From: a virus
Lineage: Duplodnaviria; Heunggongvirae; Uroviricota; Caudoviricetes
IMG/VR virus record: IMGVR_UViG_2651869748_000003
Location: 1-22,875 of that record
Reading direction: 5' to 3' (one strand)
DNA: 22,875 nucleotides
Part shown: piece after piece, positions 668 through 3,989 of the stretch
How positions within the stretch are numbered: the first letter of the stretch is position 1
How the letters are laid out: each line of letters begins with the position of its first letter
Made by a program: the position numbers and the translations under genes
Notes under the pieces: generated by a model
The model's database searches: none
Told to the model about the DNA's origin: nothing
The model's input: the letters and a program-made list of their open reading frames with translations, nothing else

Positions 668-883
668 ATGTACCAGATGGAAAAAATCACAACAGGTGTG
701 TCATACACCACGTCAGCGGTGGGAACGGGCTACTGGTTCCTGCAGTTGCTGGACAGGGTTTCCCCGTCTCAGTGGGCGGCAATAGGCGTGCTGGGGAGTC
801 TGCTGTTTGGGCTGCTGACATATCTGACTAACCTGTATTTCAAAATCAGAGAGGACCGTCGTAAGGCGGCGCGGGGAGAGTAA
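668..883 (+). CDS. S: Class II holin (phage 21 S21-type pinholin), 71 aa, dual-start motif MYQM
   Basis: Two predicted TMDs ([20 protein letters not shown] and [23 protein letters not shown]) and a charged C-terminal tail ([13 protein letters not shown]); close to the S21/EssD sequence as I recall it. GGGAG at 655-659 is 8 nt upstream of ATG 668. The ORF-track start at ATG 590 has no SD and would read through the 604-632 hairpin. Confidence 0.9.
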
Positions 884-887
884 AGCG

Positions 888-1232
888 ATGAAGAAAAAAT
901 ACGAACTGGTTGTTAAAGGGATAAATAATTACCCGAATAAGATTACTGTTACTGTGGCACTGGAAATTGGTGGGTATCCGTCACTGTTGTTGCCAGATGT
1001 GGCGATTAGTCTTGACCGTACTGAAGATGCCACGCTGGAGTTTTACGAAGCTGAGGCGAAAAAGCAGGCGAAGCAGTTTTTCATGGATGTTGCTGCCGGG
1101 TTATGTGAAGGGGATGGTCCGTTGCCGGAAAAGCGCCCCGTAATTTTAGAGGCGCAGGATGTGTTGATAACCTACAGAGGAAAACTACCGGGAATAATTA
1201 CTGGTTCTCTGAAGACTCCACCGCTGGCCTGA
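888..1232 (+). CDS. Hypothetical 114-aa protein inserted between holin and endolysin; no TMD or signal peptide evident
   Basis: ATG 888 is 5 nt after the holin stop with GGGGAGAG upstream (translational coupling). Codon usage looks coherent. Phage 21 and lambda have no gene at this position. Confidence 0.65.
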   Translation: MKKKYELVVKGINNYPNKITVTVALEIGGYPSLLLPDVAISLDRTEDATLEFYEAEAKKQAKQFFMDVAAGLCEGDGPLPEKRPVILEAQDVLITYRGKLPGIITGSLKTPPLA

Positions 1233-1282
1233 AGACTTAACATATCCAGGGATTTGAAATCGATAAACCCTGATAAATATCC

Positions 1283-1816
1283 ATGAACACCAAAATCAAA
1301 TACGGCCTGTCGGCTGCCGTTCTGGCGCTGATTGCCGCTGGTGCGTCTGCGCCTGACATTCTCGATCAGTTTCTGGATGAAAAGGAAGGCAATCACACCA
1401 CGGCATACCGTGATGGTGCAGGTATCTGGACCATCTGCCGTGGTGCCATCATGGTGGATGGCAAACCTGTCGTTCCGGGCATGAAGTTGTCGAAGGAAAA
1501 ATGCGACCAGGTTAACGCCATTGAGCGTGATAAAGCGCTGGCGTGGGTGGAGAAAAACATCAAAGTGCCATTGAGCGAACCCCAGAAAGCGGGGATCGCG
1601 TCATTCTGTCCGTACAACATTGGTCCCGGTAAGTGTTTCCCGTCGACGTTTTATAAACGAATTAATGCAGGTGATCGCAGGGGAGCGTGTGAGGCGATTC
1701 GCTGGTGGATTAAGGACGGTGGCAGAGACTGCCGTATTCGTTCAAACAACTGCTACGGTCAGGTATCCCGTCGTGACCAGGAGAGCGCGCTGGCGTGCTG
1801 GGGTATCGACAGATAA
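1283..1816 (+). CDS. R: SAR endolysin (T4-lysozyme-like, GH24) with N-terminal signal-anchor-release segment
   Basis: N-terminal weakly hydrophobic Gly/Ala-rich segment (GLSAAVLALIAAGASAP) followed by E-x8-D-x5-T catalytic spacing (EGNHTTAYRDGAGIWT). Immediately downstream of a pinholin, as in phage 21. Confidence 0.9.
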   Translation: MNTKIKYGLSAAVLALIAAGASAPDILDQFLDEKEGNHTTAYRDGAGIWTICRGAIMVDGKPVVPGMKLSKEKCDQVNAIERDKALAWVEKNIKVPLSEPQKAGIASFCPYNIGPGKCFPSTFYKRINAGDRRGACEAIRWWIKDGGRDCRIRSNNCYGQVSRRDQESALACWGIDR

Positions 1817-1905: not shown

Positions 1906-1945
1906 AAAAACCCCGTTTGTTGGCACCAAGCGGGGTTTTGTGTTT
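1906..1945. terminator. Stem-loop with flanking A-tract and T-tract (candidate bidirectional terminator or attenuator) between endolysin and spanin genes
   Basis: AAAAACCCCG (1906-1915), 15-nt loop, CGGGGTTTT (1931-1939), then GTGTTT. The stem arms are perfectly complementary. Confidence 0.45.
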
Positions 1946-2014
1946 CCTGACTCCGGAAAAGTCAAAGGAGAAAGTGTGTTTGATTTTAGCAAACTGATTC
2001 GGGAGATTCGAGTG

Positions 2015-2113
2015 ATGGCTGAAAAATTATCCACCTGGAAGTTCATTCTTATCTGGCTGGTGTTTGTGATTATGGCCTCCGGTTATTTCATCGGTCAGAT
2101 ACGCTGGTGGTGA
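2015..2113 (+). CDS. Candidate 32-codon micro-ORF encoding a single-TMD peptide ([32 protein letters not shown])
   Basis: GGGAG at 2001-2005 is 9 nt upstream of ATG 2015. Stop TGA 2111-2113 is 1 nt before the Rz ATG 2115. Hydrophobic core flanked by K and R/W. Below the size cutoff of the supplied ORF track. Confidence 0.35.
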
Positions 2114-2114
2114 A

Positions 2115-2579
2115 ATGAACCGCGTACTGTGCGTGGTCATCATTGCCCTGCTGGTGGCCTGTGGTGCGCTTAGTCTGGGGCTGAATCATTACCGTGATAA
2201 CGCCATTACCTACAAAGCCCAGCGCGACAAAAATGTCAGAGAACTGAAGCTGGCGAACGCGGCAATTACTGACATGCAGATGCGTCAGCGTGATGTTGCT
2301 GCGCTCGATGCAAAATACACGAAGGAGTTAGCTGATGCGAAAGCTGAAAATGATGCTCTGCGTGATGATGTTGCCGCTGGTCGTCGTCGGTTGCACATCA
2401 AAGCAGTCTGTCAGTCAGTGCGTGAAGCCACCACCGCCTCCGGCGTGGATAATGCAGCCTCCCCCCGACTGGCAGACACCGCTGAACGGGATTATTTCAC
2501 CCTCAGAGCGCGACTGATAATAATGCAAAAACAACTTGAAGGGGCACAGCTATACATTCGAGAGCAATGCCTCAGATAA
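2115..2579 (+). CDS. Rz: i-spanin Rz (inner-membrane spanin subunit)
   Basis: N-terminal TMD ([18 protein letters not shown]), coiled-coil-like periplasmic region, Rz1 embedded in the +1 frame. Similar to lambda/DLP12 Rz as recalled. Confidence 0.9.
2335..2517 (+). CDS. Rz1: o-spanin Rz1 (outer-membrane lipoprotein), wholly embedded in Rz
   Basis: AAGGAG at 2322-2327 is 7 nt upstream of ATG 2335. Signal peptide with lipobox LVVVGC; proline-rich mature part ([15 protein letters not shown]); 60 aa as in lambda Rz1. Confidence 0.85.
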
Positions 2580-2886
2580 AAACCGGCCAAGGATAATCCG
2601 CTGAAGATTCGCCGGTGGCTAAAGTGTGCCAAGAGTTCAATTTACGCAATTACTCCAGTCGATGCTATGCACCGTCTTTGTGAAGTCAATGGATACCTGA
2701 TTTATTTCTGTGCGCTGTATCGTCGCTGTACTCTTGCATTAATTATGACTGTAGCCTGACGGGGAACTCCTTCTGCACAAGTGTGGGGGAATAATCAAAA
2801 ACGATGCACACCGGGGTTACCGGGTACACATATTTCATCATGCCAGCGAGTCCGGTTCTGGCACGGAAGAAACCGGACGTTATGAT

Positions 2887-3297
2887 TTAGTGCGGAAATA
2901 TTTGTGTAGTGTTCTGAATGTTCTCAGTAAAGAGTAATGAATTATCAAAGGTATAGTAATACCTTTTGTTTTCGTGGATATTTGTAATCCATCTGAAAAC
3001 CCCTGCTGTAGCAAGATTTTTCCTGTATTCGTAAAATGATAACTCTCCTGATTTGAATCCTTTTAAGGTGGCTTCTATAAGGCATTTATTTTTTGAAAAT
3101 CTTACATTTACAACCTTACCCTGTCCTTTTATTAAAACCGTATTATCGTTTTCAAGAACAAGATGAATATTCTCTGTGGCTAAATAGTAAATGTAATGTG
3201 AGACATTGTGACGTTTTAGTTCAGAATAAAACCAGTGATAGTTTAAATTATTTCGCACTTTATCGAATATTTGTTTAAAAATGGCAACCTGAGCCAT
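2887..3297 (-). CDS. DUF1398-like protein (lambda right-end ORF / E. coli YbcV-YdfO family), about 136 aa
   Basis: Minus-strand ORF in the AT-rich segment. Start chosen at the second Met (MAQVAIFK...) because GGAAGG lies 7 nt upstream; the track start at 3312 has no SD. Resembles the lambda right-end ORF and YbcV as recalled. Confidence 0.75.
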
Positions 3298-3354
3298 TGT
3301 AGTACCTTCCATGTGATATGAGGGGGCGTAGTCTGCACGATTATCTAAATTGCT

Positions 3355-3588
3355 TCAATCTGGTCTGACCTGTTTTCTGAGCAATTCAGTAATGTCACTC
3401 TTTTCTTTGTTTGCTTCAGGCGAAACTCTTTTTACTGAGCACAGTCTCCGGCGGCAGGCTTCAATGACCCAGGCTGAGAAATTCCCGGACCCTTTTTGAA
3501 CAAGAGCGATGTTAATTTGTTCAATCATCTGGTTTGGAAATCGGATGTTGCGGGTTGTTGTTCTGCGGGTTCTGTTCTTTGATGACAT
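3355..3588 (-). CDS. Small ribbon-helix-helix-like protein (YlcI/YnfO, DUF3950-like; lambda right-end ORF homolog), 77 aa
   Basis: GGGGA is 6 nt upstream of ATG 3588 on the minus strand. Arg/Thr-rich N-terminus, then a strand-helix-GxS-helix pattern (NIRFPNQMIEQINIALVQKGSGNFSAWVIEACRRRL). Same position and orientation as the lambda right-end ORF as recalled. Confidence 0.75.
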   Translation of the reverse strand: MSSKNRTRRTTTRNIRFPNQMIEQINIALVQKGSGNFSAWVIEACRRRLCSVKRVSPEANKEKSDITELLRKQVRPD

Positions 3589-3794
3589 AATGTTTCCCCA
3601 TATTCAGTGTTGCTGATTTGTATTATCTGAAGTTGCTTTTACGTTAATTTGACGCAGATCAATCAATACGATACCTGCGTCATAATTGATTATTTCTCGT
3701 GGTTTGATGGCGTACACACATGTTGTGATAAACCTTATATAGATGATAATCATTATCATTTCGTGGGTCCTTTCCGGCGATCCGGGCCGTTACG

Positions 3795-3806
3795 GGGCGG
3801 CGACCT
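3795..3806 (+). other. cosN (cohesive-end site), GGGCGGCGACCT
   Basis: The 12-mer and its flanks (TTACG upstream, CGCGGGTTTTCGCTATTTATGAAAATTTTCCGG downstream) match the lambda genome ends as I recall them. Lies about 185 bp upstream of the small terminase gene, as in lambda. Confidence 0.85.
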
Positions 3807-3843
3807 CGCGGGTTTTCGCTATTTATGAAAATTTTCCGGGATC

Positions 3844-3942
3844 CATGTCCGGTTTCTCTTCAAGTTAACTATATGAAAAATATAAAAACAGGTCTTCTGT
3901 GAACCGGACATGAACAAAAAACAGACATGTAAACCGGACATG
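3844..3942 (+). other. cosB-like region: three copies of an 11-bp element (AACCGGACATG at 3902-3912 and 3932-3942; inverted CATGTCCGGTT at 3844-3854) flanking an A-tract-rich segment
   Basis: Repeats seen directly. The arrangement (one inverted copy, AT-rich bendable spacer, two direct copies 30 bp apart) parallels lambda R3-I1-R2-R1, but the repeat sequence differs from the lambda R elements as recalled. Confidence 0.6.
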
Positions 3943-3989
3943 ACCGGTTTTGTTGTGATTGTGAGGTGAGAGTTTTTGCGAGGTGAGGA

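Follow-up and report, generated by a model that had tools for sequence, protein, structure and literature searches.

Known antiholins include the dual-start product S21-71, T4 RI and P1 LydB. Lambdoid phages also carry morons, a concept that goes back to Hendrix and Juhala and for which lambda bor and lom are examples, and several phage proteins, such as phiKZ Dip, T7 gp0.7 and T4 Srd, target RNase E. The YdfR (DUF1327) family has a single member with experimental data, E. coli K-12 YdfR (b1555, P76160), encoded by the cryptic prophage Qin, for which binding of the N-terminal half of RNase E and co-purification of RNA have been reported (PMC13232886). The first 72 codons of K-12 ydfR were recovered in a bacterial two-hybrid screen with RNase G and RNase E, the full-length protein interacted with RNase E 1-597, and Strep-YdfR co-purified Rne1-598-FLAG and DNase-resistant nucleic acid (RNA Biol 2026, PMC13232886). 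An RNA bridge is possible in this co-purification, as it was not repeated after nuclease treatment. Overexpression of K-12 YdfR altered few transcripts and caused no growth defect (PMC13232886). An over-expression screen also lists ydfR, with a 3-fold increase in the streptomycin MIC, which is too weak to build on. A 2014 paper on an envelope screen is cited for ydfR, but the gene is absent from its main text, and our literature search for DUF1327 returned incidental mention only.

The window analyzed here, a 22,875-nt stretch of the IMG/VR record IMGVR_UViG_2651869748_000003, begins in the late region of a lambda-like prophage, in which the holin, ydfR and endolysin genes follow the C-terminal portion of a NanS-type esterase (DUF6645). 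A 298-nt gap, Rz/Rz1 and then the terminase, head and tail genes come after the endolysin. The positions of the features of the lysis region are listed in Table 1. The holin has dual starts, Met1 and Met4, at 668 and 677, and by sequence reading the endolysin R has a G/A-rich N-terminal (SAR-type) segment and the E-8-D-5-T spacing. The holin start is preceded, at a distance of 40 nt, by a strong terminator-like hairpin on the plus strand (600-628; 12 bp, then TTTTTTT), which late transcription would have to pass, presumably via Q antitermination.

Table 1. Features of the lysis region of the window, with the evidence for each.
Feature	Position	Strand	Evidence or remark
Phage-21-type class II holin (pinholin), 71 aa	668..883	+	PF04971 E 9e-33; PHROG 9876/20
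Shine-Dalgarno GGGGAGAG	873..880	+	Within final holin codons
Spacer AGCG, 4 nt, from holin TAA (881-883) to ydfR ATG	884..887	+	Sequence read
ydfR-family gene (DUF1327)	888..1232	+	PF07041; PHROG 406; 100% nt match to RefSeq CDS
N-terminal family-defining domain, residues 1-74	888..1109	+	AlphaFold2; alignments; dN/dS
C-terminal linker and tail, residues 75-114, ending ...EKRPVILEAQDVLITYRGKLPGIITGSLKTPPLA	1110..1229	+	Allele comparison; low pLDDT
Endolysin leader, 50 nt	1233..1282	+	Kept in window, L098, L100, L013 and L105
Endolysin R, 177 aa, T4-lysozyme family	1283..1816	+	PF00959 (Phage_lysozyme) E 2.4e-24; PHROG 7
Rz spanin	2115..2579	+	PF03245 E 1.4e-52
Rz1, embedded in Rz	2335..2517	+	ORF with lipobox-like LVVVGC

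The initial annotation of this DNA had described a 114-aa ORF wedged between pinholin and endolysin. We confirmed this ORF at 888-1232 on the plus strand, with an ATG start and 114 codons plus a stop. The proposed translational coupling to the holin stop held for the Shine-Dalgarno sequence, GGGGAGAG, which is present; the gap had been given as 5 nt and is in fact 4 nt, because the holin TAA occupies 881-883 and the ydfR ATG begins at 888. The same annotation called the product unassigned and without a recognizable motif, which is wrong as a statement about the databases, where it belongs to DUF1327 in Pfam and to the YdfR family in RefSeq. The Pfam profile search that had been proposed as a check was run and returned PF07041 (DUF1327) over residues 1-112 with 153.1 bits (E 2.4e-45; gathering cut-off 25 bits). 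PHROG 406 matched with E 4e-64, and in E. coli FDAARGOS_536 the gene is found at 100% nucleotide identity under the CDS "YdfR family protein" (WP_000731267.1), with the same flanking genes. Membership of the window gene in the YdfR/DUF1327 family is near certain, and the family is already catalogued under a Pfam entry, a RefSeq name and a K-12 gene name. The ORF is no discovery, since the holin-ydfR-endolysin arrangement is common. Searches of the window protein found no NCBIfam family, no PADLOC defence model at E <= 0.1, and no lysis-category match in Pfam, PHROGs or NCBIfam; an Rfam search of the whole window found no RNA family.

K-12 ydfR sits in the same slot of Qin (essQ stop, 4 nt, ydfR, rrrQ) and belongs to the same Pfam family. 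The N-terminal 74 residues of the two proteins are 47% identical, and this stretch matches the RNase E-interacting region. The K-12 protein differs in its length of 103 aa and in its C-terminal 30 residues, which are unrelated, and its stop codon overlaps the start of the endolysin gene, in place of the 50-nt leader of the window. An ORF whose product is 97.4% identical to the window protein over 114 residues (three residues differ) lies between S and R in H-19B, BP-4795, YYZ-2008 and dozens of Stx1a/Stx2c-converting phages, and the flanking genes are as in the window. This ORF is unannotated in the H-19B record and is a "hypothetical protein" in most of the other Stx-phage records.

DNA matching ydfR is carried by K-12, by many Stx phages and by more than half of the complete E. 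coli genomes (3006 of 5426 by megablast, at up to 8 places per genome). The family itself has a very narrow range: 94 members were recovered when 1.84 billion representative proteins were searched with a profile, and a scan of one genome each for 185,579 species turned it up in only three species, E. coli, E. ruysiae and E. albertii, plus one contig of a Veillonella MAG. Cronobacter, Sodalis ligni and metagenomes contribute rare outliers, and no match came from scanning viral sequences with the Sodalis homologue. The lysis genes of the 22,874-nt contig deposited within the Veillonella parvula MAG (L096, JAGZPX010000007.1), namely a holin, a K-12-type ydfR and an endolysin, match those of E. 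coli prophages. Their protein identities to those of the window are 79%, 47% and 90%, the same values as for the E. coli locus L095, and the contig is probably a mis-binned E. coli prophage.

The Shine-Dalgarno sequence embedded in the holin serves whichever gene comes next, ydfR in the window and the endolysin in cassettes without ydfR. The identical sequence and 4-nt spacer precede R in Stx2a_F723 and ydfR in K-12 Qin. Because this holin-embedded signal and the stop-plus-4-nt junction are used, ydfR should come off the late transcript with the lysis genes, and we expect the window copy to be made late, together with them. No promoter-like site was found upstream of the window ydfR and no terminator-like site between it and R. 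The endolysin leader is common to loci with different ydfR alleles, and there is no Shine-Dalgarno sequence near the R ATG. A candidate regulatory hairpin in this 50-nt leader was dropped, as it folds no better than shuffled sequences (z = 0.0). Base composition sets the gene apart from its neighbors: the GC content of the N-terminal domain is 43.7% and the GC3 of the gene 47%, against a GC of 54% and a GC3 of 60-67% for holin and R (GC of 53-54% for holin, R and Rz).

The window protein (12.4 kDa, pI 5.5) is soluble. The earlier claim that it has neither a transmembrane segment nor a signal peptide was upheld, with a maximal 19-residue Kyte-Doolittle mean of 1.18, compared with 1.70 for the holin. 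Structure prediction, also proposed as a check, gave a confident N-terminal domain only. With a 20-sequence alignment, AlphaFold2 modelled residues 1-76 at a mean pLDDT of 88 (pTM 0.77) as three antiparallel strands followed by a long helix, with the layout beta(5-14)-beta(18-27)-beta(37-43)-alpha(50-74), while residues 75-114 were modelled at a pLDDT of about 30 and have no confident structure. An alignment of diverse members places the family-defining unit in the first 72-76 residues, and many distant members consist of this unit alone. Across 23 diverse members Y53-E54 is invariant and Y5 nearly invariant; V21, R44 and A57 are also nearly invariant. The domain is under purifying selection, as judged from a dN/dS of 0.18-0.35 against diverged alleles, at a near-saturated dS. 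This range, together with the 153 bits for DUF1327 and the PHROG 406 match, puts the ORF well beyond chance, and it is a genuine protein-coding gene. A BFVD fold search gave no match at E <= 0.001, and a sequence profile search of the PDB gave nothing below E 0.3. Compared with a dsRBD (alpha-beta-beta-beta-alpha), the modelled domain shows a weak likeness and lacks the first helix.

By comparison of alleles, the C-terminal 40 residues are an exchangeable module. In L098 and L100 the tail is 91-92% identical to that of the window at the nucleotide level, but the N-terminal domain only 58-59%; in L099 and L095 the tail is unrelated, at an identity of about 25-28%. Proteins of 113-116 aa end at the tail, and those of 176 or 183 aa add some 60-70 helical residues. 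Alternative tails are found in the 104-aa (mEp460 type) and 103-aa (K-12 type) proteins, and the Stx2-86 type, at 268-287 aa, has an extension of roughly 170 residues. For the tail, dN/dS varied with the comparison set between 0.15 and 1.1, with too few substitutions to establish selection. Rare variants (P0001, P0002, P0010 and P0067) are tandem duplications of the N-terminal domain (169 and 196 aa) or read-through fusions of holin and YdfR (184-187 aa, PF04971 plus PF07041); they may be assembly or sequencing artefacts, since most occur on single contigs.

The position of the gene was surveyed in 240 IMG/VR loci drawn from three allele groups (window, MTQ and K-12 types) and in six species-genome loci. 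The order holin stop, 4 nt, ydfR ATG was found in 238 of the 240 (78/80, 80/80 and 80/80 in the three samples) and in all six of the others, and neither set contained an Escherichia locus with the gene anywhere but between holin and endolysin. The distance from ydfR to the endolysin is allele-specific, at 50 nt, 63 nt or a 4-nt overlap: the 50-nt gap is present in 60 of 80 close relatives of the window, and 78 of 80 K-12-type cassettes have an overlap of the ydfR stop with the start of R (gap -4). This survey, which the initial annotation had also suggested, bore out a fixed position for Escherichia, but distant homologues lie elsewhere. The Sodalis ligni homologue is upstream of tail gene L, one on a JGI contig is between tail I and J, one on a metagenome contig (L101) is upstream of J, the Cronobacter homologue directly follows Rz, and those of L103 and L104 are ahead of HNH and terminase genes. 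In L105 and L106 the gene occupies the slot after a different holin family (PF16080) and before the lysozyme; this placement favours a link to lysis.

Although fixed in place, the gene is optional. Among the phage records, 434 have this holin and only 101 a YdfR relative, so that ydfR is missing from about three quarters of those with the same holin. The premise that phage-21-type cassettes run from holin to endolysin to Rz/Rz1 with no gap is thus true of some cassettes only. In Stx2a_F723 the holin is 70/71 identical to that of the window, there is no ydfR, and the endolysin ATG stands at the same site 4 nt after the stop, behind the same Shine-Dalgarno sequence. Since R takes over this position, ydfR is a precise optional insert at the holin junction, and since the holin is near-identical without it, the holin needs no adaptation to the absence of ydfR. 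In the E. albertii locus L099 the holin gene is 99% identical to that of the window, while the N-terminal domain of ydfR has a nucleotide identity of only 60%; holin and ydfR alleles assort independently.

The initial annotation had left the choice between a lysis regulator and a moron. The moron-like option is favoured, and the regulator weakened, because the gene is optional, R occupies the same junction in Stx2a_F723, distant homologues lie elsewhere and the GC content of the N-terminal domain is low. The sporadic distribution of a passenger moron, named in that annotation as grounds for giving up a lysis role, is largely what we observed, yet the position is near-invariant within Escherichia. 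Like the morons of lambdoid phages, ydfR is polymorphic at a fixed late-gene junction, being present or absent there in close relatives, has mosaic alleles and deviates in base composition, with a GC content below that of its flanks. It differs from them in that the window copy is coupled to the holin and lacks both a promoter-like site upstream and a terminator after it; stand-alone relatives are preceded by a T-run terminator and carry their own Shine-Dalgarno sequence.

Our preferred reading, at a probability of about 45%, is that ORF 888-1232 is a catalogued, optional, late-expressed and moron-like accessory gene, and that its product is a cytoplasmic binding module with RNase E and/or RNA as the candidate target. 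The gene would fill a cargo slot between pinholin and endolysin, as in many lambdoid prophages of Escherichia, and would be an accessory late gene, neither a component nor a dedicated timer of the holin-endolysin-spanin pathway. YdfR would act in the cytoplasm as a binding module, its best candidate target being the catalytic N-terminal half of host RNase E and/or RNA, and late in infection it would modulate mRNA processing or decay and not the formation of membrane holes. The link to RNase E comes from a single paper on a 47%-identical homologue and is the only experimental lead; the window protein would resemble phiKZ Dip, T7 gp0.7 and T4 Srd only if the K-12 result transfers. Against this reading, overexpression of K-12 YdfR barely changed the transcriptome, the modelled likeness to a dsRBD is weak with its first helix missing, and the invariance of the slot in Escherichia, together with the PF16080 holin context, could reflect a lysis-linked role. 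If modulation of RNase E or RNA is correct, a host-takeover function would be added to the lambdoid late operon. The expression of ydfR should coincide exactly with toxin release and cell lysis. The main lesson is that a "textbook" phage-21 cassette carries a common and catalogued optional insert.

A late-expressed accessory gene is more likely than a dedicated lysis-timing regulator. In the latter case, which we consider unlikely, YdfR would bind the cytoplasmic C-terminal tail of the pinholin or the unreleased SAR endolysin, and delay or sharpen triggering. In favour of this, the slot and its 4-nt junction hardly vary within Escherichia, ydfR occupies this slot also after a second holin family, PF16080, and the junction predicts co-translation with the lysis proteins. 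The window YdfR would thereby share with antiholins its expected appearance at the same time as the holin. It differs from them in having no transmembrane segment, no secretion signal and no hit among the lysis families of Pfam and PHROGs, so that neither the membrane or periplasmic segment of an antiholin nor homology to one was found, and the holin keeps its own dual-start antiholin. Nor is there the obligate co-occurrence with the holin expected of an antiholin: about three quarters of the holin-carrying phage records have no ydfR, and in Stx2a_F723 a 70/71-identical holin works with R directly coupled, which makes a gene of this type dispensable for near-identical holins. The independent assortment of holin and ydfR alleles and the tail or post-Rz sites of distant homologues also count against such a regulator, as does the overexpression of K-12 YdfR without a growth phenotype, although the Qin lysis genes were not expressed there. 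If lysis timing is affected after all, the gene would be relevant to the kinetics of Stx release.

A quite improbable alternative is that the window copy is the remnant of a mobile two-gene module, in which a stand-alone DUF1327 gene is paired with a convergent partner; the window copy would have lost the partner and gained the C-terminal tail. The two genes might encode a factor made in the lysogen and a counter-factor made late, or be regulated by antisense. In L005, L008-L011, L100-L107 and L013, DUF1327 is followed by an ORF of 58-104 aa on the reverse strand. Such an ORF accompanies almost every stand-alone DUF1327 gene, with the two stops 9-24 nt apart or overlapping. Partners were assigned to PHROG 25324, 10490, 2572 or 1853, and one matched 6806 weakly. 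The pairs recur at different sites: the PHROG 25324 partners of Cronobacter, located after Rz, and of E. coli, located just after the holin, share 86% identity, and the PHROG 10490 pair is flanked by tail genes in one contig, while another contig has it before the terminase. When two of the partners were searched in 50,697 phage records, nine hits were obtained, five of which overlap a DUF1327 annotation; in phage Evi the partner hit is 12 nt from the DUF1327 match, and all six hits that were inspected lie on or beside DUF1327. Moreover, the stand-alone genes of L006, L010 and L101 share the 5' boundary GCCGAAAGGCAGGA directly before the ATG. Against this, the window and its 60 closest relatives have the 50-nt spacer only and no partner, the Sodalis copy has no partner either, and the partner families show no detectable mutual homology. 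We rate as doubtful the broader proposal that the 72-residue DUF1327 unit is a portable RNase E/RNA-binding phage module that lambdoid phages supply along with their late genes, ancestrally paired with a convergent partner and moving between late-operon slots. If that were true, it would represent a new class of phage degradosome modulator, reshaping mRNA decay. In L006, L101 and L103 the stand-alone DUF1327 gene is preceded by a T-run terminator-like sequence. Such a terminator and the GCCGAAAGGCAGGA boundary would fit a mobile cassette with its own ribosome-binding site.

Finally, a mainly cis-acting role, in which translation of ydfR would set the endolysin:holin ratio by displacing R from the holin Shine-Dalgarno and the protein would matter little, is very unlikely: R does occupy the stop-plus-4-nt site when ydfR is absent, stands behind the conserved 50-nt leader with no Shine-Dalgarno near its ATG when ydfR is present, and overlaps the ydfR stop in the K-12 type (gap -4 in 78/80), but the N-terminal domain is under purifying selection as a protein, it is kept at about 25-30% identity in phages where no endolysin adjoins, and the leader hairpin is no better than shuffled sequence.

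The initial annotation had pictured ydfR as the clearest insert in an otherwise regular region. That insert is real, but a second interruption had been missed, the 298-nt gap between R and Rz, which contains a small membrane ORF. This ORF (1976-2113 within the frame 1940..2113, plus strand) encodes 45-57 aa with one hydrophobic segment, matches PHROG 6632 (E 1.4e-29) and stops 1 nt before the Rz ATG at 2115. As a membrane protein coupled to Rz in this way, its product is arguably a better candidate for a lysis accessory than YdfR. The gap (1817-2114) has a GC content of 44% and a 13-bp terminator-like hairpin at 1907-1939 with T runs on both strands. Its length varies between 297 and 1197 nt in close relatives, and Stx2 phages have an antirepressor gene there; the gap is a second variable cargo slot. 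An AT-rich block (2580-3989, 40% GC) separates Rz from the small terminase gene and has two genes on the reverse strand (2887..3312 and 3355..3588), one encoding a DUF1398 protein (E 3.3e-43) and the other a 76-aa PHROG 949 protein. The tag "head protein" that PHROG 413 gives to the DUF1398 family looks doubtful. DUF1398 is the family of YdfO, which is also encoded near the lysis genes in K-12 Qin.
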